DNA from: Ophelia neglecta
Taxonomy: Eukaryota
DNA: 64,000 nucleotides
NCBI GenBank assembly: GCA_965285935.1
Contig: OZ260665.1
Coordinates: 14,384,001 to 14,448,000, forward strand
Direction: 5' to 3'
Numbering within the stretch: the stretch's first letter is position 1; the number at the start of each line of letters is the position of its first letter. This document shows positions 1 to 50,164 of the stretch, piece after piece. Made by a program: the position numbers and the translations under genes. A model generated the notes under the pieces. That model did no database searches. It had not been told where the DNA came from and saw only the letters and a list, made by a program, of their open reading frames with translations.

Positions 1-957
1 AGCAGTCAACAAAAAGCCACGTACACACGACGTAGAGCAAGGGTGATTGTGTGGCTGATTCTGTGAGTGTTTTCTACTCCCGGTTATCTCAGGAAATTAG
101 ACACCAGACTGAAGAAATGTGCAAAATTCACATCAGATTGTAAACAGGGGAATAGAACGAGAACATACCCAAGGTATGTTCTTGTTATATACCTGTTTAA
201 TTAACAGTATTAGATATCTCTTCTGGGGCATTTCTGTAATAAAAGTCAATGCACTATGTGTTAGGTCAAGAAAGGTTATCCCACTCACTGAGATTGATGT
301 CGCACAAAGGCATATAATATGTTTTGCTTTTGCTGCGACAAGATTTTATTACACTTTATTATTAGACCACACGTGCAGAATGTAAACCCCAGCCTTGAAT
401 AAAATCAAACAGACAATTATAAGGGTTTATCCATTCAGCAGAATGTTTATATAACCGGGGAATAAAATAAACTACTACTACTAACACTATAACCAACGCA
501 TTATTAACCTCCTACTAGCATATAGCAACCTGCCAACATGTTTATATCTTTTGCCTGTGTGGCATAAACTGCGAGTTAGTGACGCACTGCAGAGATGGCT
601 CATCCCTGGGCAACATTCTTATGCAGATGGAACCAGCCAGTCTGGTTATGGTAACTTACTATGGTTAGGGCAAGGCATAGTTTTAGCAGTAGATTATACG
701 CTCAGTAGACGAAGACATAACCGTTTCCGACAGAAATATTTTTTAACATACACGTACTTCATACTGTATCTAAATTACTTGAAGACATATACAGCTTAAT
801 CTTATAGACATTCGTGAATCTTGTTGACTGGCTAACTGGAGTGAACCAGCCCGTATGCGGTGTATGCAGTGGTTGTTATAACACATTGTATGCAGTATTT
901 ACCATGGTGTAACTGGTTGTACAGTGTTAATCAGTCGTCGCAACCCTGACACTTTAC

Positions 958-2320
958 CCACCTGGGTGGAATCTTCTAAAGAGGCGCTCTTCGTCAGATC
1001 AGTGATAAAGTCAGGGGCGTTATCGTTAACATCAGTGATCTTGATGTTGACAACAGTAGTAGCAGTTCTTGATGGGGTCCCGCTGTCAGCACCGTGGACG
1101 GTCAGAGTGTAGAACTACAACAGAGAAAGACGCATGAACACTGACAACACCCAACATATTAATGCAGGACATTATTCCAGTGTCCTACAGCAGTCAGGAC
1201 GGCAAATGCTGGTATATCCATTGGATTTTGTGGCTAGCGAAATAGAAGTTGCTGCAGTAGGATTGATCTTTAGTTTGGTCAAGATCCAATGTGTACGCCC
1301 ACAATTGTGCTTTAATGTTGTTTTAGCAAATTAAGGAAGATGTATACAAATAATATGTATATATGTACCCATAGTTTAAAAATTCCTTATAATAACATAC
1401 CTAAAGAGGCACCAACATGTTATGGAAATACATTTTCGAAACATGACTTATAAAATTGGACAATGTCAAATTAAAGTTCACCATTAGACTTTTATATTTT
1501 AGTAATATTTATTTCTTTTTCTTGCCAGTTACTTTTCGGGTCCGTCTATGCCCGCATACTCCAGTTTTCATATCGTTTGCTTAGGCATTCCGCCATTGTT
1601 CATCTACGTTTTGTATTTTCTTAACTGTATTTAATTAGGATAAACTGGTTTATTTGCAATATGGTGCCTTACAAATCAATAAGTGGTCCCGGTGGAGAAT
1701 CATTCTGATGCAAAATAGACGTGATCGTTATTCAGGATTCGAAGAGGAATATTTATTTTACCTTACATACCTCTGATATGTTAACGCTTAAATGTAGGGC
1801 AGAGTAACCCAATTATATACAGTTGAGAAAGAACAAAATGTAGATGAACAATGTCGGAACGTCTTAGCATAATGATTTACTGATTTAGTAAAAGAAATAC
1901 CAAACGATATGGTTATTAGCTATATTCTAAATAGGTGTCACATTTCTTTTGCGATTTGTCAGCTTGACGCGCAATCTAAAAGGTTTTGGCGAAGTGCATT
2001 TAGCCTCTTGAAAAACCTAAATCAATTTTAGATATACACAAGCTCTATATATATGTTCTATTTTCGATAGAACTTGCCTCTGTTTCCTCCCTATCTACTG
2101 TTCCGCGCAGTCTCAGAGATCCAGTGAACTGCCCCAACGAAAACAAACCACCCATGTCGTCCAAAAGATTGTAGACGACAGTGTCCTGATCGGCGTCTGT
2201 GGCTTTTAATGTTAAAATATCAAGTGGAGGCATGGATGCTTCGCTCACTTCAACTGTGTTACTGGGGTTTGTGAATCGAGGACGATTCTGATTTGTCCTT
2301 ACAAAGGATATATCATAGTC
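958..2320 (-). CDS. Gene A: cadherin repeat and start of a second (exons 2078-2320, 958-1114)
   Basis: NQNRPRF...VEVSE...LKATDAD...VDREETE|FYTLTVHGADSGTP...ITDVNDNAPDF, the canonical cadherin Ca-binding motifs (DxD, DRE, DxNDNxPxF). Confidence 0.9.
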
Positions 2321-5300
2321 CTACAAAATAACATAGGCGGCATATTTAGTGAAATGCCCTTGCCACGAAGGATTCCTTCTATATACTCGGTTCAAGGCTT
2401 ATTGTTACTACCAATTAATATCTGGTCCGTACAAACTATTACAGTTTTATATCATTTGTATCATTTTGTATTATTTGAATTCAATTGTAGTCCTACAACA
2501 ACAAAACAACTGATGTTGGAATGTTGAACTGCTTACGATAATTAAGTTCTGTGGCAAATATTATCTTACATGTTCTCCTTCCGTCTCGAACAGGTCGAAT
2601 ATATGTAAATAATAATCCTTGTTAATTTCTGACACCCAACTGAAAGTAAACAGATTCCAAGAAGTCTATCATAATCTAAAAATGCAATGAAAAAAGCATC
2701 TCCATTACTGGTCGGATACTAAGTCATTAGAAGCTCAATTGAAATTAATCTAGTCATCCTGATTAGTGCGATTTATTGTTTTTTTTAAAAAAGGAAAATC
2801 TTGCTATTTAAGAACCATAAATATGTTGGATATTGGCATACACGTTAAATTCGGGGATGAGTTGTCGACCATCTTGCCTCAGGGCGCCCCCTACAGTCAG
2901 GGGTTGGTCTGTGTCGTATTTATAAAACATGTAGTTCCACCCTACTCGATGCTGCGTCACGAACGCCTATAATATAGATAATATAATATTAAACTTTTAA
3001 TAATATTTAATTTAAGTTTCATCGTAAGTCAATAGGTAAACCATGCAGTCGCTGCCAACATCGCAGATATTGGTAAAATTAGCAAACTTGATACCAAGTG
3101 GTACAAGGAACAACTTATTAAGTTGGTTTTTTCAAGTGAAGCCTATGAAATATAAAAACCAGGGGTGGCAAAGCGGGCCCGGTCTGCAACTGGGGTGATA
3201 TATCTCGAAGTATGCAACCCGTATATGCTCGGGAACTCAGAACATTGCTATCATGAATATAAACTTTACTATTGGAAAATCGAAATCATATCTATTGTCT
3301 AAAGACGTGAACTTCATTAATATGTATTTTCTTTTTGAAGACTATTATATCCAAATAGTAGCAACCATCAGATAGCTGCGATAACAGGCTTATTCTTCAT
3401 GTTGGTTTACTTACGGGGATACCCTTACCTTGATATATTGAGGTGTGCTTACCCTGATGTTTGTATACCTTACGGAATAAGCGGAGGTGATAGTGCTTAC
3501 CCTGATAGTGCTTACCCTGATGTTGGTAGTGCTTAGTGTCTCCAGCTTGGTAATATTACTGACACTAACGTTCAGAGGATCAAGGCCGCCGTCACTCAAA
3601 TAAACTCTGTTTGGAAGGCCCTGAAAACGACATATCCTGGTTATACTGGTTATATTAGAATCAAATTCATTAAACAGTATCCACTTCATTTTCACAAATG
3701 ATTGGACAACAAGTAATTACTTCAACCAGTATAGTTTATATGGACAGAAAATGATAATAGTTTTAAATTTCCCGTTTAAAATAATTAAAGCGCACGAATT
3801 AGTGTACGTGTTTACAACTCAAACGGAATCAATCCGGGTATATAAAGGGCATATCAAATTTGTTTGACTCCCTGAGTTTACGAGAAAAAAAACATATTCA
3901 AGATTGTCGCTTTATCCCATTATGATAATCAATTAAATAATGATGCTTCATTTTCATAAGGTTAATCCCAAATTATAGAAAATCTGTTCAAATGTTTTAA
4001 ACTATTGCTTTCTGGTTTTAATTAAGCTCTTGCAGTTGTTGCACCAAGTAATGTAAATCATTGTTTGAATAAAATCCAATTTGTATTGTCGTGCGCCTCT
4101 CCTTCTCTTAGTAGTAACCAGACACGATGCAGTCATTTCTCGTACCCAAATCTGGGTTACTGCGATGCCTTGCCCGACAGTTAGCTACGTAAGCGTATTT
4201 TTGAAATACTAGAAAACAATTTCGGGCTATGGATAATAGTTGCCTGAAATGGCTAGTAGTATATTCCTGTAAAACAGACTGCTTTTTGGGAATGGCAAAG
4301 GCCACAGGTCGTTAACAGTAACAATGTAGACTAGATGACAGTATGAAGAGCCTTGATGCAAGCCTAGCAAAAGGTTGACACTTTATAATATGTGAAATAC
4401 ATTCCGGAGTGGCAGCTTTTCTCAGAAATTAATTGATCGAAATGGTGATTTATTTTGTGTTGGTCGTTATGTTTGGTTTCAGTAACGAGAATAAGCCAAA
4501 CTCAATTACAAGTTTACATCCGATATCAAATTATATATATAAAATACATGTTAATGTTTACAGATTCCCATTTGATCTGGTATCCCTCACCAATGATAAT
4601 ATCAGAAATTGCTTGACCAAACCACCTATTATATTAGTATTTACGATATGCTGCAGTATTTTCCATACTACTTCATATACCGCATCAGAAAGGTGGGCCA
4701 TCGATATGGGCATATTTGAAATTTTTCAGACGTAACTATCACTGAACGAAAAATCATTGAGCGTTCATATATATTTAGTTTTGCGTCGAAATAATAATTC
4801 AAACACAAGACATCTTTTTTCTCAGGGTTAACGGTTTAACTACTTTCACTGGCCCTTGACTAGCCAGGTTTGTAATGTATGCATGTAAGAATACCTGAAG
4901 TCCTTGGGTGTCGATTGTCAGGAAGTCAGGCACTCCATCATCCCGAGGTTTGTCCACACGTACCACGTGTGACAGCTCGTGGAAGTTCACAGACTCCATT
5001 ATGGACAACTGATGATCTCCTTCATGGAACAGTAAAATGTATGTTATGGTCACGTGACTCAAACGTCATGCAATGTTCGATCAACGGAATTGTAACATGA
5101 ACGTATAGAATCGTGGAAATAAAAGAAGAACTTCTCTATTGCATTGATTAACAGGATCACATACATCTTCATTATTTGCATGGTGATAAATATGCACGCA
5201 AATAATGTGAGGTAGGATTGATGGAACCAAACCGAAATTAATGTATATAATGCTAGGACAAATCCATCAGCAACCGAATATAAAAATTCTGTTTTTCATT

Positions 5301-8300
5301 ACCGAGAGGATTGACATTTTCGAAAGAGGCTGAATAGTTAGAGAAAGTCCCTCGGAGTGATGACGTCATTAGCCAACGTGCCATCTTCGTAGTAAAAGGG
5401 TCAATGTCTCCGAAGTTGATTGTGAGTGAGGGTGATAATTGCTTAGATCCAAGCTGGGAGGATATCAGTTTGAAATTGATCAGGAGTCCTACAAGAGGAT
5501 AGTGAACAAGATGAACAAAGATAGAGCCGGCAAATACATTATTGTACCGAATATTATACACACATATACACCATTAATGTTAAGCCTAAACGAAATGCTG
5601 ACGTGTGGTTTGGAACCGTTATTAGCAACAGCATCAGTATTTACTTGGGCCAACAAATATGTATAATATTATTTACGAAATACGTTGGTATGCATTTTAA
5701 TTTTGTATATGCAACAAGTAAAACACTTATACACTGCCGTATGTGTGTGGACCATATTACGCATTACATAGTGCTAACGTAAATATAAAAATCTGCAGGA
5801 CCCCTGTAATAAAGAGAAGGCTGAAAGTCGAGGTCCATATATCTCAGCACCTGGCGGCTTGCAGACAGTCTCTGCTAGTAGCCGCTGCACATCTGTGGCG
5901 TGCTATTTAATACATCGTCATTTTAGACAGGAAGACATTAATACTGGCATGGTCTAACTTAGGATTACACACGACTTGTTATTATAGTCATTATTTAGAT
6001 AATATAGTGCAAAACACACTTTCCTTATAACCTACCCTTCTCATTTTCTACGATGGTCGGTTGCCCGGATGTGATTTTCAGTTGGTTGGCAGACCCATAT
6101 CCGGTGTTTGTTATGAGGATTCCAAGAGAAAACGGCACTGGCGGTTCTATATCTGAAACGTATATATTTAGCCATGTACCAGTGGATTATATGAATGCGA
6201 ATATATTCATTAGTTTGAACTTCGTTTTAACACATTTCAGATTGATCTGAAACGTATATATCAAGCCATGTACCAGTGGATTATATGAATGCGAATATAT
6301 TCATTAGTTTGAACTTCAGAACGAGTGCATATTGTAAGAATGTATACAAATGGATACAAACTCCATCAATATAATAAGAGGTAAACATGCGCATTTAAAT
6401 CGTAGCTACCGTCTGTGAATGGATTGTCTGATCGGACGTATTTCTCCAGAAAGTAGTTCAGATGCAATCGTGGATCTGGTTTGACAGTTACCTGTCAATA
6501 TAAAATATGGCGCGCCTTTATAAATGTTACTTTAAACTTAATAAGTAACATAATAAGTAATATTCTTATTGACGAATGATCAACCAGATACAGTGTTGGC
6601 GCATTTTTAAATGAAGCATTGGTCAGGATCTGTCTACATGCTCGAATTGCACTAATTAATATAACAGACTAATCACGTGAAATATAATAAATCGTTTTTA
6701 CCGTGTCGGGAAAAAGAGGGACGCTGATTTCATTTCCATCTACTGAGTAGAGTAGAGTCCCTCCGATGGCGTACTCCACGTCCTTGCTGGGAGCAGCCTC
6801 AGAGTAAGGTACGATAAGCCACACGGCTGTACCCTTCTCTTTGACCTCTAGCACGCCCGTGCCGTCCACTCCTGAAAGTCCTGTGAGCTTGGGATTTCCT
6901 GCAGATCAAACCAAAGCCTGTTATTTATTTAAACATATGTTATTTCCTTTAGGAAGGAAACGCATCATACATAATTCCTGAGATCTTTTCTTTCCGGTTA
7001 GCCAATAGTAAACTTAACATTTCTTCTTAGCAGTTTTTCTTTTCCACAGTATAATTGGGATCTACTTGTATTCCGTTAATCATAGAGTAAACACTAACTT
7101 TAGCTTAGACACATAAATCACAAATAGGCAAGATGTGTTTTGCATGCTACGACGAAAATATATTTGAATATCATTTTCTTTTCACCCGCTGAATGTCGAG
7201 GCTACCTCATAGGCAATGAAACCCAGTTTGTCGAGTTGCTTAACTTCCTCATAAATAACATTTTTGAGCACGTGGGTAGTGAGGTGTTTCTGCAAACTAT
7301 TGGTTTTCTAAATGGGTACCAACTGCCCTCATTTGATTGCAGTTTTGCATCTATTTACATACGAATATGATTTTATTACTAGTTTGCTGCCGGGTAGGAA
7401 ATTGCTCATAACTAGGAATGTTCTTCAATGAGTTATATAGATGATTTATTTTCATTTAATAACAAATTCTTCAGGCAATATGTTAGTGAAATTCACCATT
7501 TTTAGAACTCAAATGTAGATCGCATTCTAGCATTATTTTTGTTGTCCAGCGACGTTGGTTTTTAGTTTGACTCGTATCATGATAAATTGCTTTCAATTCG
7601 AAAGTGGTTACAAGTTTTGTTCAATTGTTCGTTCCTTTCAACAAATGGTTTGAGCATCATTGGATGATATTGGTATAAATGCATACCGGCTCGAACAACA
7701 TAATATATGGGTGAATAAATGACCTATTTCGTTTAAATTAAAAAAATACAAAGGCTATGCTGCCATATTATAGCAACAGCCTCTCGTTTGATCCGCCTTA
7801 GAACACAAACTATTAGACAGAAATGTATACACGAGGTAGCAATTACATGCCTTTGTAGCATTATTAGGATGCCTCGACAATGGACAGTTTTAAAACTTTG
7901 AGACGTGTCCGTTTGTATTATTAGTGGCCCGGCAAAAGTAAAGAAAACGATGTGCATATACTGTCCAAAACCAACCCTATTGAAAACTCATTGCTCAGCT
8001 GGCTGGGACCTATGTTTCGCGGACGGAGCACCTCGTAAACATATACAACTTATATTGAAGAGCCCGCTGTGGAAAGATATGATGCGTATCAATTGCAGTA
8101 AAAGTCCAACCTTCTTACCAATACTAAATTTCTCTGTGGCTATCTCTTTGGATTCTTCGTCTTTGATGTAGATCTCCACTTTGATGCCATCTAACCTTGA
8201 CGTATCGCCGTTATCGAGCTCCAATGTCGCCTCAAACGCTTCTCGAGTAATGACTAGGCGCTGTTTAATTTGTATCCGAACTTTTGCACATACACCTTCC

Positions 8301-11300
8301 TCCTTCTGAATGGCAAAATAGTATACTAAATAATAGTAGAAATGATTTCGTTTGCTTTGTAGTTTATGACCAAATGAGTACGATGCCTACCTAGTTCTAC
8401 TCTAACAAAAATCACTCACCAGTTCAGCACGGTTAAACTTATTGATAGCATCTCCCACCCAGTCTGCCGCTGAGGAAAAGCCATCCTATAAAAATAGATT
8501 CCTTTCGAAGTGAAAAGACAACCATTAACCAGCAAAATTCGCAAGTTTCATGCATTCCTTACGAAGCATAACTAGGAATAGGAAATAACTTTTGTTCCTA
8601 TTCGGCAAAGGACTTTATTTTCGAAAAGAAAGGGAAACTATCACACGGCAGAATAAACATTCGAATGGTACGAAATTATTACACTTGGTGCAATGATTCG
8701 CTAAATGTTTCTGCAAGCGAAAGATTTTTGTTTAATTTAAAAGGTTACTAGGCAAATAAGTCATGTCTTTAGATGTACTATCGGCCTAATTATGACTTAT
8801 CTAACCTGTTGGGCGCTTGCTTCCGCTATCTGGATCATCAAATTCAGCTTGGAGATTTCAGAATGACTGATAATGTCTGGCCCCTCTAGCACACCATTGT
8901 CCCAACTCCATTGTGTGCGGTTCAACCTTTATCAATAGCAAAGTATAAAGTATATTAATAACAGTAGAAATGACAGTAGAAATGATTTCGTTTCGCAATT
9001 TTTTAAGGCGCGCAGTAATGGCAGTATCGCAGTTGGTTTTGAAAATTCAAAGGAAATTAATAATCAAATTGTTATTTTATCAGTTAGTTCGAAACCTCGT
9101 GATAAAGGTTTCCACCATATCCTTATCAGTTCCGTTAGGGGCTGGATACTGAAGTATTGAGTTCATCTCTGATTGGCTGATATACACTCCGCCCTCACTG
9201 GCGTCTGATATGGTTGGTGTCACAGCGGCATTCCACCACTCCGGAGACTCAACCTCAGCCCTGACATAATGACAAAAGATATGAACGAGTCAGAATAAAA
9301 CTCCAATCTAACTCATTAGAGATACACAGGCCATTCTCGCTCACAGCTTTAGATTTGTCGGCCGAACAATCTAAGATACATTTAAGATACCAAGTTATCA
9401 TGACAGAACGTTTCGAACTATTCTTGCTGATTAATATTGTTGACACGCGATAAGGTGCATAACTACTGTGGCAAATTGCTTGTGTGTCCATGTTACAATT
9501 ACTCGCCCCCCCCCCCTTATTTCTTACCATCTAGAGTCGCCTGCTATCAGTAGGGCCTTGTGCAGGTAAACACTGGAGATAATAATCCGTTTTCTGACCT
9601 CGGGGACAAGGTCAGCCTGAGTCAGTTGTGTCTGACGCTTCCTTCGTTGTCCCGAGTTCAACTTATTCAAACAGTCGTTCAGTTTGATAAGGGAACAGAC
9701 CGGCCGCAATCTAGGTATGGGGTTTTCAGTTCGATTAGCAGCTTAGAGAGTCATAATTCATCAGTTGATAATTACATACATTTACGCTGTTTTTGGACAG
9801 TAGTTATTAGCCAGATTAAGAACATGGATGTCATTAGAGCCACTGACTAAGGAATATTCTATATTATGATATGTCTGGTTATCATTGATCGATGAAGGCG
9901 CCAACACCTTAAAAACTTTCAAGAAGCTGGCAAGCGTTATTATTTGGCTATGAGGCAAATCATACATTTGTCGATTTCATGTATGCAATAAGTGTACTTA
10001 AGATCATGCTGATTCAGGGATATAAAAAGAATTGATTAATAAATGTACCACAATCTAGTTTTCTATGTATTCCCCATTCTAGCCTGACTTAGCGGTTATG
10101 CAAGTTAAACTGATGGACAGAAAGTTAGAATAGAATAAAGTTTGAACCACGCCTTTGGACCCTAAACTCCAGCTTTCAATTCCATTTAAATGCCATGCTC
10201 CAACGCGTAATAAAAAGCTTATGGAGGCTTAACTAATTTTGGTTAAAAATAGCCAACGATAATCATTTTATTCTGGTGACATATGATATGTTTTGATATA
10301 AAACTAGTCCGACCTAGGACACAACTTACACGCAAACATGAGCGATTTCATTTCATACATTTCTTAGTTATGGCACTTACGGCAATATATAGGTAAGGGG
10401 GTCTTTGACATCTGGGACAAGACATTGCCAAACAGCACTCTCTGCACATTCCGTCTCATCAGGAACGAAACATTTCAGTACAGAGTGGACGCAACTAAAA
10501 AACGTAGAACGTCATATTGCTAATTCGTAAATAACAGATGAGTTAGCATTATCAAAGTAGTTATAAATTTCTACTAACTAATAATGTGATTATGTGCACT
10601 TTTTTATACTACAACACCTTAGATTACCCCTTATGACTTCTACATCAGCAAATATCGCAGCTTTATTTTCCCGCCGTTGCTTATTACGGCAATAATAATA
10701 CTTACCCAAAAATGGATGCTGGTGGAAAGAAACAGCCGACAATGCTCTCGGCAGCTCCCAACGGGTCATTGCTGCCGACCGACCCTGCCACTGGTACGAA
10801 ACACTTAAGCCCCGGGGGCAGACCAAGGGAGCCACAGCTCAACACGATTGGAAGGCAGTTTTCACATGTTATTGGCTGATCCACATGAACCTTTGGTCTC
10901 CAATTGGGACCTCCACAACAGCCTACAATATGTTTTAGTCAGATGACTATGAGTCTAGGCAAAGTACAGTTTCACTGTGATAAGATGTATATCACTGCCA
11001 ATCGTTAGAAGAAAAAAATATACAATGTTTCCTGTCCTTTAACTTACCTAAACAAAAATACCCTACCTCAAAATTCTTATTTACATTTCCTTCAATTTAT
11101 GAAACATTGTCTAATTTTGAGTCCTGACCGGAATAGTATGTCTCCCTTAACTGTAGCCACAGTCTTCAGTGACAAAGCACATTAAACACATGAAACACCG
11201 AACAATGGACACTATTCACCAAAAAATATATAGAAAACTTTTAACTGTATAAAGCTTAATGCACTATCATACTGTCTATGTCCGGCCCTCCATCACCGCC

Positions 11301-14300
11301 TCCATGTTGTTCCGGACGGACATCATGTGGCGTCACTTTACACGTCCGTTTTATAGCGTCGTAGATAGCGACATCCATTTCAACCGCCCTCTCTCTGTCG
11401 CACAGATAAGAAAACCCCGCGTACAGGGCAAGTGCCAGACATGGGAGGCTGAAATGAATGAAATATGACATATGCTATTTAGTCCAAACTATTTCCAGTG
11501 GATTAGGAAATACAATGTTGTTTGTTTCATATGAGCTGAGTACATACACTGACTAAACGCAGGTGGCGAATTGAACCCATTTGACTTCAGTTTCTATACA
11601 TCTAACTATACTAGAATTAAACCCATCCCATTGATCGGGTGGTGGAGTAATAGGTCTAACACTGCAAAAACGATAGTAATGTTTAGTTCTAATGTCATTT
11701 GATGTGAATATTTGATCAAAATAAGAGTTTACACACAAAGAACGTTTCCTGCGCCCAGGTTCAGTTCCTGTATGTTTAGCAATGTAAGCGTCCTTTTTAT
11801 TCTGGTCCAAGGTAACCAACACAGGGACGTGAATAGTCGAGTTAGCGGCCAAATCACCAATTGGATCGGGGTCCTTTAATCAACAAATGTATATATCAGA
11901 CAACTTTCGCCCTTTTAAATTGGCCACTGATATCTTGCGACTCTTCAGTTGAGTGTCCTTCTATAGTTGGACCATTAATTAATATTATCTTGACATCTGG
12001 TTTTGTATTGTTTGCTTATCCATTCGTGTTCTTTAACAAGTGTGTACTCCTACTCGACATTTTTCTTTTGAAGATATCTTAAAAAGGAAAGTTTTTAATC
12101 GATTGTTCCTACGGTAAAGTGAAAGTAGCAAGAAATAAAACAATATATTATCATTTGTATTTGTTTCTAAGTCGTTCATTAATCCATATGATTACTGACC
12201 ATTGAGAATGAAAGATACGGATGAGCTTCGTCGAGAGGCGGTTTCAAATACACGTTATTTGCTTTAATCAAGCCGTGATTGGTCAGTTTAAAATTAATGA
12301 TTGGCATCAAGCCTCTCTCGAGGACCGAGAGATCCACCTCCTTGGGATCTATGGTAACGACGGGGATGGGAACCTGTGTCTTAAAATCGGCTTCTATTGT
12401 CACATCATAACGATCCTCGAATATAACTGGCTTCACAGACCATCTGAAATAAATCATGCTTGTACTTTCAGTTCTTATTACTTTAATGAAAGCAATGTTA
12501 CTGTAATATCGATTTCGTTGTCATATGACTTAGACAGTTTTGCATGATTGGTAAAGTCTCAACACTGGCTAGGTTGATGTAGGAATTTAACGCTTGGACA
12601 ATGAATGATTTAATTTGCAACCTGTACGTCACAGCCGTCCTTTGCAGGAAGACAGTCACCCTGTTGGCCAGGGGCCGTGCGAACACCACCCTGCTGTCAC
12701 CCGTATGACGATCGGCAGAACTGTACAGGTTGTAGTAGTTCTCCGTGATGCCCTCAAACACAACGAAACCTGATTCATTGGAATATTAGATGAAATGAGA
12801 TTAGAATATACCTTACCATTACAACGGAAATAAGGGAACTAGACTGTGGTTGTTTAGTGTCCGTGAGCTCAGGATGTTTAAGAAAGTGCCGTAGTGTGTT
12901 CATAACTAAAGGGTAACATTAAACATTGTTCTATTTATGAACATATATATGTATATAATCCCATTATGTTAAAAGATCAAAAGTGATTAGCGTTAATTGG
13001 TGTGTTTGTTTTAATTGAGCCAGAAAAGCACTTAAACTTAAACCAGTCTTTCTATTTAACCTTTTTAATAATGTCATTCCATTGCTATATAGATTACAAG
13101 TCTTTATATATTACAACACTGTTATTTACACTCTTGGGTATAGCTTTGAGGTAGTATTTACCAAAGGTATGTTCACAGTACAAATTGGCAATTGGCACGT
13201 TCTTTGTCACATGATTCGCAATGTGCAAAAGTTTGAAAGATTCACCTTTCATCACGTTTAATATTCATGAATTATAATAAATGTTGCCTAAGTGCTTGCT
13301 TTCAGTCAATCATTACATTCAACATATTACGGTCGTCTGCTGTCATTTGTCTGTTGGTACGACTGTCGAGTATTCGATGCGAGGAGAGTGTATAGCCTAC
13401 CAGACGCATTGGTGACACGTTCCAAAGTTCCGCCACCAAAGGCGTTTTTAAGTTTGACTGTGGCGCCCTCTAGGAAGGGTTTGTCTTCGGCGAAGTATGT
13501 GTACTCGTCTTCTATGTACACAATGAGGTCTAGAACACTGGTCGAAGCTACCACAAATCTGGTACAAAAGTTAATGGGAAATATTTAAACAACTATACAA
13601 GGTAGAAGCTAATAATGCATCATATAAACCACGAAAATCGGCGCAATGGACCTTGCTCTCTTTGAACGAACTATTACAAAAAGGTATTATTTATGATAAA
13701 CAGACACTCAGTCTATGTTCCAATTGTCAACACAGTGTTGCTCACCGAACCGTTGCTATATTAACATACGTACACATAGTTTAGTGCGACCCACGTCTCA
13801 GCTGCTCGAATACCAATTCTGCCCGATAAGGATTCCAGTTGGCGTTTTGGGTCGGGGGTAAGCCCAAATACCAATTGGGCTGTATCACCGGGTTGGAGAA
13901 TGATATCTTCATCAACCTCTGATGTCACACCAAATGATATGACGGAGAACATAGGATCTGAAGGTAGCTCTACGTGAACCCCCGTGGCAGGCCGCTGACC
14001 GACATTCTGAACTTGGGCCTATATTGGAAAAAGCACTGATAAGTGGTACGACAAGTAGTATAGTTTAGTATAATGCAATTAGCATTGTTAATAATTGATT
14101 GTATACATAGCTGAGGGTTCCTGGTGTTTTGGACCCTTTGTTTCTGATCTCGTTCCTTTTAAATTAGTTGATTTTATGTTTTAAACAAGCTAGTTATAGA
14201 GACGGTGGTTGATAATGTGTGTATGACGTGCTTACACTGTAAACACTTACAGTGAATGTGCGAGAGGATCCCCTTAGAACAGTGCCTGATATCCGAGTCG

Positions 14301-17300
14301 GTTTTACCTTCAACGCTGGTCGTTTGACTTTAAATTCAAAGTCTACCCGACATTTTTCAAACACTCCTCCTTTTGTTGTCAGTGATATGTAGAACATTCC
14401 TCTACTAGGGGCTTGCACTGACGATATAATACAAATCTTTATATATAGGGAAAACAGTCATGCCAATGTCTTAGTGTATATTAATGAGCATTCAATAATA
14501 ATGTTTTAATGGATTATTCAATGCCCATAAATAGTAGTCTCAGCCTTAAAATCATAATTGTATTAGCAATTTTCCCGAAAGTAGTATTTGACCATGCAAT
14601 TGTTGTTTTGTTCTTGGTTTACCTCGAACGGTAAGTGTAAGCTGAATCTCTTCCGATGCAATCATTTGATCTCGGAGCAAACAGTCTCCACGTTCCAATA
14701 AACAGTGAGGTGACGTAACATTTGTTTCCCATAAAAGTATGTCCATCGCTTCCAGTTCCGGTATCCTCTGTATGATTCATTCCAATAATGAAGTTTGCAA
14801 TACTTTGACGAGACCAAACATCGAAACGTTTCATATATTTTGAATATTAGTTTAATAGCGCTGACTACCTACCTGAGCAATGACCTTCAACACAGCGTCA
14901 TTACCAACATTGGTGACCTTGAGATTTGTAGAGAAAGACGTCTGATCTACAAACCCAGTCAGAGATATATAGGAGGGCTTAAAGCGCATACCAAGCACGG
15001 ACCACTGTATCTGAGGGGAGAAACCCGAGTCACGGGGATGCCGTGCGTCCTATAAATATAAAGCAAGAATATCCACACAATAGCTAGCAAAATACACAAA
15101 TTCAAAACCGCTCATATGACCAGTCGTTTAGGTCGTTTATCGCACAGCATGGTCATTTGTGGACAACTTATCTTTCCTAGGGGTATTATATGATAGGTAT
15201 CTTTAATCTAATTATCATTCATAGAATTTGGTACTAGTTCCAAACGTATTAGCATGTATAAATTTTATGATTAAGGTAGAAATTTTGGACGGATGCCCTT
15301 TGTCTTAAGCATTGAGTGTTCAGGAGTAAGTAACATTCCACATATAATGCAAATTGGAATAATTGACTATTCAAAAAAAAATATAGTAGTGTACAGGTAC
15401 TGTTATCTATAATAGCCTTATAAATAAAAAGAATGTTCCAACTTACAGCTTTAAACACTCCATATTCATTTTGTGAAGGGAAGAACCGAGTATAAAATAT
15501 TCCTGTTCCGGGCATGGATTTCACATTGAGCGTCCTTACCGCTTTATTGGAATGGATTCTGAAATTTGGTGTAAGTCAGGTTCAATTATAAATGAGTTGA
15601 CGTCCTATGGTTAATACACATAAGAATCAAAGCATCTGTACATCCAATGCGTCATCCTTAGACCCGCCATATATGCGGCTAAATTGACCGGCTTAATGAT
15701 AAATTGCAATTTGTTTGATACGTGTTTTTCTGTGCTCTGACTATAAAGAAAGAGTGGGCAAAAAACCCTATTCAGAAGTTGTGGCTATATAGTTATGCTT
15801 TATAATTATGCACATCCTATCTCTGCTCGTTCCGTGATCAAAATTCCTCATGAAATAGACTGTACTTATGTTAACTGACAACATATGAGCTGTACAGATT
15901 TATATCTGGCCAGGGATAGAGTAAACAATATTCAGTAGATTGGTTTTATTAACTGTTCATATATATACCGACCCTCTCCTTTTATTTCTCATTTTGTTTT
16001 TCATATAACCGACCGACTCAGTATAATTTTGATATACCTTATTACAACTGGCACTTTGGACTGTTGTAGATCCTCTGCTGCATTGTCAAAAACAACTCTT
16101 CCACTGATCAGCATTGGCAAAGCCTTCGGATATGGCCCCGGAAGCACGCCATCTAGTGTCACGTGATAAGTGAGCGGTACGTTGAGTTTGAAGGTCATCT
16201 CATCCTTGCCGTAGGTGTTCTTACACGTGACTGTAAGAGTGTACGGTCGCTCCGACGCCACTGCATGTGGCCAGTGGACCATTCCTGCGTCGTTCATGGT
16301 CATGCCTGAGGGGTTGCCTGACAGACGCCAAATCACGGGTTGCTGACCCTAAATCATACATTCAAAGGGTTTATATGGAACAAAATACAATTTTAAGTCA
16401 GTTCGACATTAACTGTGCAAAGACCACTATACAATGTATCAAAAATAGATAGCTGACCTCTGCCAGGTAAAGTTGCAAAGTGAATTCACTCCTCTCCATC
16501 GCCTCGAGGGTAGTGACTGGTGTTATGACTGGTGGCAGACCAACCTCGGAGCAGCTGTCTCCTCTCCAGGGTTTAATACAGACACATCTTCCCTTAGAGC
16601 AAACTCCTCTCTGGGGAACCTCTCTTGACCCGCAGGCGCTCTCAGGGCAAAGCGCGTAGTACTCATAATACACCTACATGTAAATATCAATGCATTAGAA
16701 TGTTACCTTGACCACATATAGTCTATTTTATTCATAGGTCATGCTAGTTTGTCCTCACAAAGTATGGGGAATTTCTGAAACATCTTCATCTGTCAGGTGT
16801 ACCCCTGGACGCTTCCTTTGATTTGCCGGTTTCACGACTGTGATATGTTACCAGCTGGATGCAAGGTTGCGATTAGTTTTTCAATTTTGCTTTTTCATAT
16901 GCTCATTTACAGTGACTGAATGATGTTTATCATACAAATTCTTAAACAGTACAACCAACAGCGAAATCGACCCACTGATTGGAGGTGGAATAAAAATCAT
17001 GGTTGTTGCAAATAATTTATTGTTAGGGTCTGGCTTGTGTTAGTGGTTAAGGTTCGCATGCGGCACATTGATTTTACAACATTTTAAAAAGACTGCCATA
17101 GGCTAAAATCGTGAGTTTTGCTAGAGATAGTTGTAGGAAGAATGTTGTCAAAATGACATCCGCTGTCGTAGTAATCATCGGACGAGGGACTTATGACCTT
17201 GAATACCTCTAGTACATGTTAATCCACTTGGATTGATCACTCAACATCATACATCAGTCACGTCCTCTGGACAGGGGTTTGAGACTTAACTTAACTAGAC

Positions 17301-20300
17301 CACTGTTGTGCTAGGAACACACTTTTCTTGATCAGACTAATGACGATAATGATGTTACTACCTTTTCATTGGTGAATGGTAAACCAAGGCCAGACGATAC
17401 TGACACCCTGACCCGACCTGGATTATTCTCAGGGGCGCGGCAGACTATCTCCTCTTTCGACTGCCATTCAGCAGGGACTTCATCGTTGTTAAATCTGAGA
17501 AGATTGTTTAACATTATAGTTTTACAGCTAAATAACATGTGGAAACAGCGGCTTGGGCTTCACTTTATTTCTATTTCTACCTAACACCGGGTAATATAGT
17601 AGCAAAATGGCAATATCGGCCTTTCCTACATGTCCTACTTGTATCATTGCGCAAAACTATTTTCCAATGCTATCATAGCTTTTTTTCCACAATAACTGCT
17701 ATTGTGGAAAAAAGGAAATTTTATTTGTACCAGCCTTCTTGCATTTGGGCTCAAATGGATAATTACCTACCAAATTATTTGAAAAAAACTGAGTCTTGAC
17801 TGTAAGAACACAGCACTTTGAAAGCCGATTTAAGGTCGTTATTATTATGACCTTGTCCGTTCATTGCACGTACCTGCATCTATATTGCGATGAGCTGGGA
17901 AAGTTATGACCGAACACGTGTACCAGGTTTCCTCCTGTATCCGGGCCTCTTTCGGGGGTTACGAATAATACCTGGATGCATCGATCATAATCGTTTTATT
18001 TGTTTGGTCATATACCAATTGGAAGTACATGTAGTTGGCTTTAATCATAATTTTAATTATAAACTTGTATTGTTATTTGTAAGGAAGAGTAGTTACTTCA
18101 ATTGATGTCATAAAAAATGTATTAAGTGTAGATTTTCTTCACCCATATTTACCTTGGTAAAGGGTTATTTTTTTACTAAATTTTATTTTCCATATTTAAA
18201 CTTCGGGCTACATCGAATTAATACAAGTTACATCATATGATCCATAACATAAGTAACCTTGGTAAAGGGTTGACACGTTGGTCCGTAAAACGTCTCAGCA
18301 CATTCCGAACATTGATCCCCAGCCCAGTTGGCCTCTGAACACACGCAAACTCCTGATTCAAATAAACACATTACGGTGTACGATTTTTTTCCATTAACTC
18401 GCCAAAGTTCAAGAAGGTTACTACACAGATAACATGAGTTGTAAAGAGATGAAATCAAAACATTTAAAACGAGTCAAAGTGACAAAAGCTCTCGAGTAAT
18501 GTGTGAAAAGGAATAATGTGAATATGGCATAGAGCTGTGTAGTTTATTTTGTTAGAATACGTATGGGTTGAATTTGCATTCCATGTGTCAGTGTCCAATA
18601 TCATCATTTCATTCTTATAGCACTAGCTTTTTCATCTGATAACATGAAGAATTGACTGATTTGATATCACTTACGTTGAGAAGTAATCAAATATTGTATT
18701 TGTAATGTTTTCCACACGTGGATTAATTTTATTCTACTAACAAGTATTTCTTATAAAACATTTTAGATACCTGAGTTAGGGTGACAGAATCCATTCACAC
18801 ATTCAGGGCAGGCTAAACACAATGGACCCCAGCGATCTTCGGCACAATTATCACAAGCCTCACCGCCAAATCCCTCGTAACAGTAACACCTGACGAAAAC
18901 AAAGTTATACTCAGCACCACTATGTAAGATATGGCGCCCGAAGTATCCTTATATGAACCACTTAGCACCACCCATATATTGCTAGTTGAATGCCTTAAAA
19001 GGCTGCTTTGTGGTACTGCTTTTCCGATTATTAAGCACTGTGCTAAAATTAAAGGCAATAGTAATGTTAAACTAATGGTATATTGTTTCACCAATACTGT
19101 TCTGTAGTTTATGCTCATGTTAATCAACAAACGACAATAAAATCGATTTAATTTAAACAGGAATCATGACTAATATTTCATATAATGTTTTAATAAACAA
19201 TGCTAAATTGCATAATCTTTTATTGGTGGTGTTGATTATATGTGATCAGCTTTGCTCACATTATATCATTCACTCAGGTGACATGGCGGCTACCAGCTAC
19301 ATAATTTGGATTCTATGAACTAACGGTAAGATTAAAAAAGAATCAAATGCTATTAAAACTGAATTTGCTATTCTGTGTCTTTGTGGCAAGGGTGACCATG
19401 GGCAAAAACTTTAGATAGGTAATGTTTTATACCTGTCAGGTGATACACAAACTCCATTTAAACTGCAGTTTTTCCTGTTGTAACACGTTGGTTTGGAGCA
19501 GTCCGGCGGTAGCCATCCCGGTTGACATTGGCAAACATTAGGGGCTACACAGTCTCCATTACCTTGACATTCATACATCTTAGCGCAAGACACCTATGAG
19601 CATAATAAGTCCACTAGCGTGTGATGATGTAAACAACATCATCAACCAAAACATATAATATACACAAATTTACCGCCACCATATTTCGTAATGTAACCAT
19701 TTGCTTGTAAACCCATGCTTGATTCATCCCAATATGTATTCAATTTAAGTGCGATCAAACTTACAGTTCCACAGTCCGCCCCGGCCCAGCCCTCGTGACA
19801 GACACACACATCAGGTCTCCTGCAATCTCCGTGTGCACTGCAATTGTTAACATTGTGACACGATACTTCAGGAGATTTCAAGGGGTCGGTCCAAGTCACG
19901 GTACCCACCTGTGGGTCATCCGCATTGTCAAAAATTCTATTCTACAAGATTTGAATGGAAAACACAATGTTAGGGCAACCGATGATTATATGACAAACAA
20001 ATACATGTATGATTAACGGTATATGAGATGTTACACATGTTCTAACAATCAAGAGAATGCATTTCATACTGAACGATTTAATAAGAAAATTTAGTTTCTG
20101 CAATTATAGCATTCAATTTTGGCACCGAGCGGTTTATATTCTGGATTAACGCATTATCTGTGTCTGTCGGATATTCACACCCGTTTTATTAAGTCAAACA
20201 ATCGTAAATTTTCATTTCAACCTAAAATTTACAGTCAATAAGTTAACGACTGTGTAACTTACAGCGTTAGCCGAAGAAAACACATTTGTATTAAACCATC

Positions 20301-23300
20301 TAATAAGTATCAGAAAAAATCCAGAACTTTTTATACATTATTTGATTTAAATTAACACGTTTTACCGGAATCAGAGCTTCATCACTAGTGCCCCACCAGT
20401 TGTTTGGACACATCAAGGTATTATCGCTCATGGCAAAGGTTGCTTTGACATCGAATTTACTCAGAGGATTAATAAAGATATTCCTACAAAAGAACGCAAA
20501 GGCACAAGTGATATATTCTAAAATGAAAACCCGTTTTGACAGAAAACCCTTGACTATCATTATTTCTTTAAGGATACCTGCGGCATTTGAATGCGTTGGT
20601 TGAACAAACTATAGCACTTATGCAATATAAACACACTTGCTATGTGATGTGGAACAGAACAGCGAAAGTAATACGCGCCAGAATAACAGAGTAGGTTTAG
20701 AGTATAACCGGTTAACAGTAGATATATGAGCTGCCAAAGAACAAATGCACAAATACAGAGAAATAAACAAACACCGGATGGAGCAATTTTATAATTCCCA
20801 CCTCTCTAAAAGCACAGCCACCGCCATCGAATTTTAGCTTTAGCAGACAAACATGCATTGGCATATATTCAGAAAAATTGCTGGATGGTAAAAAACTATG
20901 TGTTCTTAAATAATAATTTCTCATTTTGGTTCACCATTAAAGCCTACCTTTCTACTGTGGCCCTGTAGGTTTGCGTTTGCAAAACGGCCGCCGTGGCCCA
21001 GTTACCCGTGAACAGGTTTCCAGACACTTTGATGTATGGACTTCCTTCTGCCAATACACGACTATCGATCTACAAATATTAATCCAAAGATAACGTAGCA
21101 AAAATACCTTAACCCAAGAAAAAAAATTTGAAATTCTGTGTGGGTATAAACCTTGTTTCAAGCATGTATTAAATCAAGTAGCTATTATACTGAGTGTAGC
21201 CTGATGTCTGTTTCAACATCAAGGCATATAACGTAAAGTTCTGGGGATACATTATTTGCAATCGGATTAAAACAAAGATAAACACCTCCGATTGTCATTG
21301 TTTACCTGAAGTATGGACGTCCCTTCATTTTTGTTGAAGTCGTTGGTTTCAATACTAAGTTTATTTTCACTGTGGCTATTCCCAAAAGAAGATATGATAC
21401 CAACGCAACCGTCATGATATGTGTTGTTGTAGAAAGTGTTGTTCCTTATCGTGATGTCTACGTTATCAACACTTTTCAACACAATAGCAGATCTAGTCGA
21501 GTTAGCGAAAACATTGGAGAGCACCTATAAAAGAACACGGTACAATGAGAAACGAAATGAGATAGCCAAGAACATTATTCGGCGTATAACATATTATGTG
21601 GGCTTAAAGTACAGGTATTCGACGAAACTTACAGAAGGGGAGGCTTTGGCGAATGGGTCTGATGTATGGGGGTGGGGGGGGGGGGGGGGGGGGTGGTGTT
21701 GTTTAGATGACTTAACTCATAATGAACTACACCGCATAGTTTAAAGTACTAACCGATAGTACATTTCCCCTGCCATAGGTCGTACTGTACACTTCCAGAC
21801 ATTCATACATGTTTTCTGACCAAGTGTTAAACTCTACATTAACTACAGAGTCAATTCCATATATTTTCAAGTATACGGACTTTCCAGTTAGAGTTCCAAA
21901 GAATCTGTCGATTGATATGATAACGAAATCTTACAACAACGATTTGATCAATATGTTCATTTGCGAACAAAGACGTGTGCAAATATATGTGGAAACTGAC
22001 ATAATACAATAAGTTTCACCATAAAAGCTGTTATAATTTACTCGTTAATTCTCAACGGATATCAGACTTATGTTATTATATGTACGGCTGCAAACAAACT
22101 GGCCACGGCTTATCAGGTATCCAGGTGGCCTAATGCACAACTAAATGGTTCTTCTATATTGATCTCATTTTAAACTAACCTGTTATGACTAAGGTGTAAA
22201 ACCGCGCTATCTTGCGTGCGTATATCAATGGCATTAGTCTTGCTGTGTTGGAATACACATCTGGCGATACTGATGTCCGTTACACCGACCAGGATAATGC
22301 CATTCGTTTTATAGAAGGAGCAGTCTTCCACAGTTAGGTTAGTGTGCAAATTTAAGTAGTTGGTCATAAACACTGCTTGTTCACTAATATCTGTGAAACT
22401 AGAAATTATTATGTATTAGATATTTATAACCTAATACACAGGGCAAGATCACAAGGACGAATTTGAGTGCAAACCAAGAGCATCATGGGTTGGACAGCGT
22501 GAAGTGCAAAAGCGCTGATAAAATATAATATGAAAATTCACTACGAAAAATAAATAATGGCCCACAATATTTTGCTGTCATTTCCAATAAAAAAAGTTAG
22601 TCTTGGATGAATTTGACAATGACTGCAGCTTATTGGGTTGACATAAAAACATTAATACATCCAAAACTAAGCGAGGTCTCGTAGAAATACAAGTGGCAAC
22701 GCAAACTGTTACAAATGAAAAGGGTTCTAAAATGTTTATACTATTTCACTGCGTATTGAGAAAAAAACTGTAACCTGTTTACCTTGAGTTTTTTACCACC
22801 AGTCGCCCGATTTTATTGAAGTTAATAGCCTTGCCAGATGTGGCATTGAAAAATAACGAGTCTGTGACAGACAGTGCAACACCTTCATCCATCAGCTTCA
22901 TTGCATCATGACGGAAGTGACGAATTATCAGGCGTGACAAATTAAGTTGTCCACTTCCGTAAACTTGTATAGCATCATTTTTCATACGTTCCAGTATGAC
23001 ATTTTCAAATCTGCAACATTCGCACTCTATAAAGAAAACACATTTAGATTACAAGTAGCATTCATGTTGTCTTTCGCCACTCTTTTAACATAATTAAGCT
23101 TGTTGTCGCCAGAGTCAATCGAGTGTTCCAAAAAGGTTGAAATGTGATGCAAAATTAACACAAGACACATGAATTATATCATTCATGTGGTTTTGCCACT
23201 GCACGTGGATACCCTCTCCAATGATTGGTGGTATTTCCTGGCTTGTGGGGACCTCATTTGGAGTTGGCACTATTGGTTCAAATGGTAAAACAGAAAGCGT

Positions 23301-48139: not shown

Positions 48140-48237
48140 CTCCTATACTTAATGTTTACGTGTACGTTATTTAACTTTTAATTGAAATAAACCATCTAGA
48201 AGCTTCGCGTCAGTTGTTAAAGCAGGAGTGATTAACA

Positions 48238-48440
48238 ATCCCCCTCCCCTTTCCCCTACCATCCACCCCACCATCCCCTTCCCCTTCCATCCACCCCACC
48301 ATCCCCTTCCCCTTCCATCCACCCCACCATCCCCTGCACCCTTGCCTCCACCCCACCATCCCCTTCAACATCCATCCACCCCACCATCCCCTGCACCCTT
48401 GCCTCCATCCGTTGCTACCCCATCCCCTCCTCTACCGCCC
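48238..48440. repeat. C-rich ~28-bp tandem repeat (G-rich on the minus strand)
   Basis: CCATCCACCCCACCATCCCCTTCCCCTT repeated with variants. Confidence 0.85.
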
Positions 48441-48504
48441 TGTAAGAAGAATCAAACAATATAATGGTAGTGTATCGTAAGCCGGTGGATCTCCACCAAA
48501 TAAT

Positions 48505-48785
48505 CTTGCAATACACCAAAAATAATAGATAGCAATACACCAGAAATAGCTGATAGCAATACACCAAAAATAATAGATAGCAATACACCAGAAATAGCTG
48601 ATAGCAATACACCAAAAATAGCTGATAGCAATAAACCAAAAATAACTGATAGCAATACACCAAAAATAAGGGATAGCAATACTTTAGAAATAGCTGATAG
48701 CAAAACACCAAAAACCAAAAATAACGGATAGCAATACACCAAATATAACTTAAAGCAATACACCAAAAATAACTTAAAGCAATAC
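48505..48785. repeat. AT-rich 24-bp minisatellite, about 11 copies
   Basis: Unit CAATACACCA(A/G)AAATA(GCT/ATA)GATAG; source of the spurious LVYCYQLF ORFs. Confidence 0.9.
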
Positions 48786-48957
48786 CTTCACACATACCTC
48801 GGTACGCACTTTTTCATGTTTTTTTTCACAGATCCAAGTTAACTCGGAGAACATTTCTACTTTATAGCATAGATGCTCTGATGTACAAGTCTTGCCGGTA
48901 CCTTCATGACATCGAGCCTCCCCAAACAGTGCCGCTGGGGGGGGGGGGGGGGGGCAC

Positions 48958-49345
48958 CGAATACAGAGACAGCGTTCACAAACAGTATGGCATAGCGACG
49001 TCGAATACAGGGAGGGCGTCCCCAAACAGGGCAGCAGGGCGACGTCCAATACGGAGAGGGCTTCCGCAAACAGAGCGGCAGGACGGCGCCGAATACGGAA
49101 AGGGCGTCCCCAAACAGAGCGGCAGGGCGGCGACGAATACGGGTGGGCGTCAACAAACAGCGCGGCAGGGCGGTGCCGAATACGGGTAGGATGTCCCCAT
49201 ACAGCGCGGCAGGGCGGTGCCGAATACGGGAAGGGCGTCCCCATACAGCGCGGCAGGGCGGTGCCGAATACGGGTAGGGCGTCCACAAACTGCGCGGCAG
49301 GGCGGCGCCGAATACAGAGAGAGCGTTCCAAAACAGCGCGGCAAG
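48958..49345. repeat. GC-rich 44-bp minisatellite, about 9 copies
   Basis: Unit CGAATACGGGAAGGGCGTCCCCATACAGCGCGGCAGGGCGGTGC; about 4 degenerate inverted copies at 45348-45540. Confidence 0.9.
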
Positions 49346-50164
49346 TCTATAGTTGCAAAACATCATGGCAGACAGGCATGTTAGCACCACACGAACCTTG
49401 CGTGTTTGTTGACAAATGTTGTAAAAAGGAGCCAGACACAAAACGTCATTTGTCTGGAACATTGTTATTTGATATATCGTCGCTTTGTTCTGTTTCTTCC
49501 TATTAATTACATGCCTTATGACATTGCAGGTTTTCTGAGCCTACTTTTATAATCCTGTTCCTTCTCACGTTCTATTTTCATGTTCCTTTTCACAGTTATG
49601 AAGTAAAGATAGCAGTTTATTTTTGTATATTTTATAAAAGGGTCCTAAATGTAGAATGTTTTCAGTCTATTATTAAGATTATTTTTAGCATTTTTAATTG
49701 ACCTTTTACACCTTCAGTTAAACCAGGATTTTCGATTTATGAACATTGAATTTGAACATTGAACATAAGGAAAGCATGATTCATAATAACATAAAATGTT
49801 CGTGGAAAGGCAACACCTCATATTCCAGCCATGTGTCTTTCAATGATTTATAAACGTTTATGGAGCAGCTTTGTTATACAATCTCTGTGGTATGAAGTGG
49901 ACCGGTATGAAACAACGGAAATGGTAGAAAATATCATTATAGAAGACACGCTGGTAAGTATATTCTGATGTCTACGAAAATATTGTCAATGAGACTTGCC
50001 GATAAGCGAGTAATTCTAGTTGGCATGATAATAGTTGGAAGTTATGAAAACAGGTCAATGAATTCCTGGGAAGAAGAATGTCTGTCTTATAGTTACAAGT
50101 CTATATAAAAGTCTCCCAGCAAATAGCATAATTTATTGGTTTCTCTCAGTTCCATATGTCAGAT

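Follow-up and report, generated by a model that had tools for sequence, protein, structure and literature searches.

A variable, cysteine-framed helical module between two likely furin-type sites in a giant protein of Ophelia neglecta

The window analyzed here is a 64,000-nucleotide stretch of Ophelia neglecta DNA (assembly GCA_965285935.1, contig OZ260665.1, positions 14,384,001 to 14,448,000; G000:C8). It is intron-rich animal DNA and carries, on the minus strand, a giant gene whose product is likely an undescribed protease-primed device for delivery or recognition. Two RRKR motifs (11753-11742 and 9646-9635), both likely cut by furin-type convertases, bracket a cassette of 192 residues (196 with the second RRKR) that holds 16 cysteines in the spliced model; the initial annotation had placed the sites and the cassette here, and both were confirmed. 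In relatives, the corresponding slot, which a predicted split immunoglobulin (Ig) domain would clamp, can be empty or hold a helical module, a beta module or an RHS toxin cage; such a design is unusual. Neither databases nor the literature searched gave a match to the core, although its relatives number at least 1,439 and range over bacteria, a choanoflagellate and many animals, lamprey among them. The reading favoured here, tentatively and as somewhat less than probable, is that of a furin-primed, tethered and likely membrane-active hydrophobic module.

A Widespread and Apparently Undescribed Family

A profile of the exon preceding site 1, searched with a cut-off of E ≤ 1e-3, retrieved at least 1,439 relatives (50%-identity clustering). 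A second search contributed 120 of 391 proteins, the ones listed. In total 270 proteins were compared, 167 of which have both flanks of the cassette; fragments and early-ending or RHS-carrying proteins were excluded from the site counts. Named relatives come from Saccoglossus, Lingula, Haliotis, Mytilus and other molluscs, two shrimps, Lampetra, Adineta, Monosiga, and bacteria of several phyla. In a midpoint-rooted tree built on flank columns, the window protein falls into a 135-leaf clade (support 0.993) with every named animal in the tree except the rotifer Adineta. About 110 of these leaves are contig open reading frames (ORFs) from ENA, Logan, and NCBI (P0170-P0270), each a single ORF of about 2,200 residues and often several per contig. 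Since a signal-like start was found in only 11 of 97, they may represent very large exons in eukaryotic genomes.

No match to the core was found in Pfam, NCBIfam, or PDB (best E 0.057 in a PDB sequence search with the family profile), and neither a single-exon word search nor an initial GTDB scan gave a match. No description of the family was found in the literature searched, which excluded subscription journals and supplements, among them the domain lists of PMC3482391 and PMC13018210 that could bear on novelty. The family appears to be undescribed.

Two paralogs lie on the same contig, at ~13.70 Mb (minus strand) and ~14.31 Mb (plus strand) of G000:C8 (L004-L013). Their cassettes are 55-61% and their flanks 71-79% identical to those of the window gene, and cassette dN/dS among the paralogs is 0.15-0.31, indicating purifying selection. 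Paralog 2 retains both sites (RGKR and RMKR) and has another basic run in the linker, while paralog 3 appears to be frameshifted at an A-run within the exon preceding the cassette (assembly error or pseudogene). As a separate observation, the window exon at 6702-6898 is 94% identical to its counterpart in paralog 3, with a pS of 0.16 against ~0.6 in neighbouring exons, likely the result of recent gene conversion. Multiple cores also occur within single proteins: P0002 (Saccoglossus) has three in tandem, two of them with both RRKR sites, and P0022 (shrimp) has two.

Conservation of the Two Furin-Type Sites

Five minus-strand exons (11873-11737, 11448-11273, 10922-10706, 10494-10381, and 9710-9528) carry AG/GT ends throughout and give a single open frame when joined. 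The 11737/11448 junction, a predicted splice yielding SF/LPCL, uses a weak GTGTGT donor; the donor in paralog 2 matches it in position and phase. The explicit model covers 856 residues of a protein of ~4,500, and motif counts for the window protein refer to this model, in which no R-X-K/R-R motif occurs besides RRKR↓S and RRKR↓Q.

Conserved basic sites and flanks around a variable cassette had been expected from the initial annotation, and this is what the homologs show. At site 1, 125 of the 135 clade proteins have KR or RR and 49 the strict RxK/RR motif; at site 2 these numbers are 127 and 103, and both sites are strict in 45 proteins. The background frequency per 28-residue segment (9,364 segments) is 6.4% for KR/RR and 0.1% for the strict motif. 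Outside the clade, the strict motif was found at site 1 in 0/28 and at site 2 in 1/28 proteins, the one being Monosiga, and in 1/62 further bacterial inserts. The bacterial relatives are without furin sites and have Ala/Ser-rich linkers of unrelated sequence instead. Across 20 named single-core animal proteins, the 4,417 residues spanning site 1 to site 2 contain 31 strict motifs, compared with 1 in the other 59,796 residues; because the homologs concentrate the motif in this span, its occurrence by chance is excluded.

Loss of the sites tends to be joint. Both are absent from P0026, P0152-P0154, and P0261, which represent three lineages, and paralog 3 likewise has neither strict site, giving about four lineages of joint loss; a Fisher test on this pattern overstates it because the rows are related. 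The lamprey protein has further basic sites within its cassette. In a model of the homolog P0015 both sites lie in predicted loops with a predicted local distance difference test (pLDDT) score below 50, so that burial, which would have spoken against cleavage, was not found.

Variability and Cysteine Frame of the Cassette

Mean pairwise identity within the clade is 0.54 in the N-flank, 0.28 in a hairpin at the start of the cassette, 0.21 in the linker that follows, 0.27 in the Cys-helical part, 0.43 in domain H, a helical region that follows site 2, and 0.62 in the C-flank; the cassette is thus 21-28% identical against 54-62% for its flanks. Eight cassette cysteines are nevertheless 92-99% conserved, and their co-loss suggests nested pairs (r 0.89, 0.81, and 0.59). 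The number of cysteines between the N-flank and H is even in 106/135 clade and 55/61 bacterial proteins. As the count upstream is mostly even, the cysteine of the GVCAKV motif (window 8290-8288) is without evident partner. It is present in all 163 payload-bearing cores and absent from four of the five empty-slot forms.

A 19-residue hydropathy peak of at least 1.6 occurs in 32/49 bacterial and 55/135 clade cassettes, including that of the window (1.67), compared with only 1-5 of 135 for the N-flank, H, and C-flank. The net charge of the window cassette is -8 (clade median +2, range -19 to +12). An antimicrobial cargo acting as a cationic peptide, one of the functions first suggested, is unlikely because of this charge.

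A hidden Markov model (HMM) built from 49 bacterial cassettes scored at least 10 bits in 105 of the 135 clade members and in none of the reversed controls; the window cassette scored 17.0 bits (reversed control -1.4). Since the bacterial HMM detects the clade but no reversed control, the animal Cys-helical module descends from the bacterial one; in the window it is the last part of the cassette (part C), homologous to a 72-residue, 8-Cys unit of Verrucomicrobia. In an NCBIfam and Pfam scan of 37 cassettes, the Cys-helical unit matched no family above noise. The ESM Atlas, queried with the mussel cassette, gave no usable match, and a mutual-information contact analysis was dominated by phylogeny.

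Contents of the Slot in Bacterial Relatives

From 385 GTDB matches, 72 loci were retained, with 62 ORFs containing both flanks and 4 others truncated. Of these 62, 49 have a Cys-helical payload with H, 11 a beta-rich payload without H, 1 a degenerate helical payload, and 1 an empty slot. Among the best 150 of the 1,439 profile matches the slot is empty in 5 and holds a beta payload in 3, while RHS repeats follow the linker in 7; another 74 N-domain matches are fragments or unresolved. P0014 (Kiritimatiellae) is the sole one of the seven RHS forms to have RHS between both flanks. RHS was profile-confirmed in P0095, P0134, and P0139, and one of three RHS tips scanned, that of P0047, has a TNT domain (E 1.2e-30). 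The polymorphic-toxin link that had been proposed therefore stands for the bacterial homologs, in which RHS cages and a TNT domain follow the N-flank. It does not extend to payload exchange in animals, where a single payload type with one Cys frame was found throughout.

The hairpin and linker are retained when the bacterial payload changes, and thus the unit that is exchanged extends between the linker and G[VI]CA, and not, as had first been assumed, between the two RRKR sites. It begins after the Gly-rich linker and takes in the ~150 residues of domain H. At its smallest, the helical unit of bacteria comprises 72 residues with 8 cysteines and is very hydrophobic. It is always accompanied by H (16 loci and 4 proteins), and H was found only alongside a Cys-helical payload. 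H is a candidate shield or chaperone in cis. No helical unit was found outside the scaffold, as 4 proteins of 206-2,000 residues and the matches in 6 of 401 genomes were all scaffold.

The beta-type payload of Verrucomicrobia (L022, L024, L026, L030, L032, L063, L066, L068, L069, L079, and L087) is built of long strands with a Gly-rich, alternating sequence, as is typical of amphipathic beta-hairpins. The members scanned have no Pfam or NCBIfam match, and a profile of this payload matches neither an RHS tip nor the helical payload. Separately, about 14 long bacterial-type proteins (P0020, P0041, P0050, P0054, P0064, and others) end 108-143 residues past the N-flank in a short Cys-rich tail; their payload may be encoded by a separate downstream gene.

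Predicted Structure of the Core

Structural readings come from P0015, folded with a 40-sequence alignment (mean pLDDT 77, predicted TM-score 0.60). In this model the first ~40 cassette residues form a long beta-hairpin after site 1 (residues 260-290, pLDDT 76-80), and the next ~38 form the Gly-rich linker (pLDDT below 50). The small helical cassette of the initial annotation is thus predicted to be helical in part C and not in its first two parts. Over residues 168-291, hairpin included, VIA returned MSP and chaperone domains, namely 1grw_A (Z 8.8, root-mean-square deviation (rmsd) 3.4, 104 aligned) and 5ghu_A (Z 9.0, rmsd 3.7, 101 aligned). Over residues 139-711 it returned many Ig domains of ~110 residues, such as 2r39_A (Z 9.2, rmsd 3.0, 107/109 aligned). 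The N-flank and C-flank are accordingly predicted to share one split Ig domain, and a nested insertion is predicted in which this domain holds an Ig/MSP-like domain, then linker, payload, and H. This reading stays a prediction because the VIA Z-scores are modest.

Folded alone, cassette and H gave an all-helical model, with a pLDDT of ~90 for H and 50-75 for the cassette. The proposed Foldseek comparison returned no match at E ≤ 1e-3 in PDB or BFVD. No pore-forming or fusion-protein fold was listed among the fold-search matches, although such a fold is not thereby excluded.

Proposed Mechanism and Alternative Readings

In the favoured reading, furin-type convertases would cut both RRKR sites and produce three chains, which are predicted to remain assembled. 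The cassette would be held by its beta-hairpin within the Ig/MSP-like domain of the N-chain, and this chain would also supply one strand of the Ig domain in the anchored C-chain, as suggested by the homolog model. Domain H may shield the hydrophobic module until site 2 is cut. With this second cut the hydrophobic helical module, likely stapled by disulfides, would be unlatched, and it likely would act on a target membrane. The SRCR/beta-helix/EGF arm may bind a target. A cluster of three cysteines (hairpin YxC, the first Cys of CxxC, and GVCA) may form a covalent latch. We infer cleavage, anchoring, shielding by H, and membrane action from sequence and models. Processing into chains that stay associated is probable, judged on a single-chain model, and a membrane-active role, if such processing occurs, is slightly favoured.

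Several points weigh against the favoured reading. The strict motif at site 1 is present in just 49 of the 135 clade proteins, and the clade counts are not independent because its ~110 contig ORFs come from a few expanded groups. The protein folded was P0015 and not the window protein; VIA Z-scores of ~9 are modest, VIA ranges give end points only, and the cassette helices are of low confidence across homolog models (pLDDT 40-75). No known pore-forming fold was matched (best VIA Z 6.2, rmsd 4.8, 134 aligned), a transmembrane-grade hydrophobic stretch is absent from 80/135 clade cassettes, and the window cassette is acidic. No positive selection was detected among the paralogs, where dS is near saturation. 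In bacteria there were no orphan cassettes, all 13 matches (in 6 of 401 genomes) lying in full scaffolds, and no recurring immunity-like downstream ORF was seen by eye among ORFs of at least 90 residues. Lastly, the RHS payloads show the capacity of the slot and not the action of the helical payload.

A close rival, possible though more doubtful, is that the cuts mature a recognition or adhesion receptor in the manner of Notch S1 or SEA domains, with the Cys-helical module as a variable binding tip or force-released sensor and no membrane disruption. The lectin-type/SRCR/EGF/cadherin architecture and anchor-like C-termini are consistent with this, as are the purifying selection, the acidic cassette, and the position of site 1 inside a beta domain (homolog model, VIA). 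Teneurins provide a precedent, being described as toxin scaffolds turned adhesion receptors (PMC13018210). The receptor reading leaves unexplained why the bacterial versions are strongly hydrophobic, why the module is always paired with H, and why toxin cages occur in the slot. If correct, it would define a new family of cleavage-matured surface sensors.

It was first suggested that the stretch from RRKR to RRKR is excised and freed as a toxin, antimicrobial, or signal. Two optimal sites that tend to be lost jointly would fit, as would the extra basic sites of the lamprey cassette, and the even Cys number in 106/135 proteins means that no disulfide to the rest of the protein is needed. Free release is nevertheless unlikely because, in the homolog model, the hairpin after site 1 completes the Ig/MSP-like domain to which the N-terminal chain contributes the rest. 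These first 40 residues are also retained in payload-free bacterial forms, and the furin boundaries differ from those of the swapped module. Free cargo is accordingly given a low probability.

Slightly less probable again is a device that baits proteases and traps them covalently, as alpha-2-macroglobulin or complement does; here the Gly-rich linker would be the bait and the odd GVCA cysteine the reactive thiol. The split Ig domain with furin sites in an insertion, the highly variable linker, and a cysteine found in all 163 payload-bearing cores with no evident partner would suit such a trap, but the thioester motif is absent and Foldseek TM-scores to A2ML1 and C3 are 0.07-0.08. That the sites are basic linkers which stay uncut, or are cut without consequence, is very improbable given 31 motifs in 4,417 residues against 1 in 59,796 from hemichordate to lamprey, even though some members are without both sites and the bacterial linkers are Ala/Ser-rich and unrelated.

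Layout of the Giant Gene and Its Surroundings

Judged by open frames and by tblastn with homologs, the gene extends between a signal-like exon at 47666 and a hydrophobic end ~4.4 kb past the window (Table 1). Pfam, run on single exon frames, identified SRCR, beta-helix, EGF, TIG, He_PIG, and cadherin domains, an extracellular set. The furthest-upstream exons of the N-terminal arm match the N-terminal parts of homologs by tblastn. On the homolog model the transthyretin-like domain aligns with 5aq0_B (VIA Z 11.5, rmsd 1.8 Å, 80 aligned). Part A of the cassette also occurs in empty-slot and RHS-type bacterial forms. Beyond the window the cadherin repeats continue, and they are followed by a Ser/Thr stalk and, near G000:C8:14,379,644, by a hydrophobic end which resembles a glycosylphosphatidylinositol (GPI) signal. 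Both gene ends, and with them the signal for secretory entry and the GPI assignment, were read by eye; the protein is predicted to be membrane-anchored at the cell surface.

Table 1. Features of the giant gene, in window coordinates.
Feature	Position	Strand	Basis
Likely first coding exon, signal-peptide-like start	47597..47666	-	By eye; presumed part of the giant gene
N-terminal arm, many exons: SRCR, right-handed beta-helix repeats, EGF, IPT/TIG, He_PIG	16004..41550	-	Pfam on single exon frames; homolog tblastn
Transthyretin-like (CarboxypepD_reg) domain	12622..13559	-	Pfam in homologs, mostly under curated cut-off; VIA
Conserved N-flank: long strand (predicted to belong to the C-flank Ig domain and complete it), followed by most of Ig/MSP-like domain	11754..12443	-	Profile search (1,439 relatives, E ≤ 1e-3); homolog model; VIA over 139-711 and 168-290
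Putative furin-type site 1, RRKR↓S	11742..11753	-	Motif; homolog conservation; loop with pLDDT < 50 in homolog model
Cassette part A: predicted beta-hairpin (YxYxC...C) completing Ig/MSP-like domain	11340..11741	-	Homolog model; VIA; homologs
Cassette part B: Gly/Pro-rich linker, 16-62 residues across the clade	10876..11339	-	pLDDT < 50 in homolog model
Cassette part C: Cys-framed hydrophobic helical module, ~109 residues, 11 Cys here	9668..10875	-	Bacterial HMM; alignment; predicted helices
Putative furin-type site 2, RRKR↓Q	9635..9646	-	Motif; strict in 103/135
Helical domain H, ~150 residues	8420..9634	-	pLDDT ~90; co-occurrence with Cys-helical payload
Conserved C-flank beta-sandwich domains, GVCAKV at start	3516..8305	-	Homolog alignment
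Cadherin repeats	902..2320	-	Pfam; open frames; tblastn

Other elements were also noted in the window. Reverse-transcriptase-like retroelement fragments were seen by eye at 28491-29718, within an intron of the giant gene, and at 53500-54078, and tandem repeats occupy 48170-49540. An upstream gene has minus-strand exons at 59900-63770 and 54731-54895, with a Thr/Ser-rich stretch and an F5/8-like exon (by eye).

Comparison With Known Systems

The wreath domain of the sponge aggregation factor was considered and is not supported as a relative: the VIA list has no vWFD row, and the core is widespread in bacteria and bilaterians. The wreath domain is described as a demosponge-restricted vWFD-like sandwich with an Asp-Pro site (PMC11670116, PMC5400394).

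C3, C4, and alpha-2-macroglobulin resemble the proposed arrangement in being matured into several chains at tetrabasic sites within the insertion of a split beta domain, which adjoins a variable linker and a small helical domain with disulfide bonds. They differ in that their GCGEQ-type thioester motif is absent from the 856-residue model, where the invariant cysteine lies in G[VI]CA.V. As to the MG-domain ring fold, Foldseek gave TM-scores of 0.07-0.08, with generic Ig chains and no meaningful structural match, and the domain set is unrelated. In Notch S1 and SEA domains, a cut in a beta-domain loop leaves the chains associated via shared strands. Here two sites surround a payload module, and no sequence or fold relationship to these proteins was shown.

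Halocin C8 is Cys-rich and hydrophobic. A recent preprint describes it as a toxin of ~76 residues that is made together with its immunity domain in a single precursor and is found in RHS proteins as well (bioRxiv 10.64898/2026.07.27.741052). C8, in contrast to the module described here, is C-terminal and released. The halocin_C8_dom model (TIGR04449) was not among the matches of the 37 cassettes at E ≤ 0.1, its presence in the library being unconfirmed.

Bacterial polymorphic toxins combine a constant scaffold with interchangeable payloads (PMC3482391), and this is shared by the bacterial relatives only; the text examined mentions neither CARDB nor furin. RHS-type relatives likewise end in variable tips, one of them TNT. 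The helical and beta payloads differ in standing mid-protein, that of the window being followed by H, C-flank, and cadherins. Orphan cassettes and a conserved immunity gene were not seen, and animals hold one payload type.

Teneurins and bacterial teneurin-like proteins are the remaining comparison. They too pair an animal surface protein with a bacterial scaffold bearing variable payloads (PMC6425310, PMC13018210), and the bacterial relatives of the present family carry Ig/CARDB/fn3 arms and some RHS cages. EGF repeats and a transthyretin-like domain ahead of the core also occur in the window gene. The FN-plug/NHL/YD shell, however, is absent: the 856-residue model has neither room nor motif for it after the transthyretin-like domain, and the scanned animal homologs matched no RHS or NHL family. 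The payload slot lies inside the protein here and at the C-terminus in teneurins, the anchor here is predicted to be C-terminal, and opening is predicted to proceed via furin sites rather than by an RHS self-protease. The window protein is read as functioning in a similar way to teneurin-like and polymorphic-toxin scaffolds, but because the YD shell is absent and the payload internal, it is a member of neither group.

A more speculative and doubtful proposal is that the family is a second domesticated bacterial polymorphic-effector scaffold beside teneurins, present from hemichordates and molluscs to lamprey and in a choanoflagellate. It would be surface-anchored and target-binding with an internal slot, furin would replace the bacterial linkers as trigger, H would act as built-in immunity, and the three-Cys latch would deploy a new class of disulfide-stapled, membrane-inserting modules. 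Should the favoured reading of a furin-primed, membrane-active device be correct, the family would represent an overlooked defence system and a second, teneurin-like adoption of a bacterial conflict scaffold by animals.

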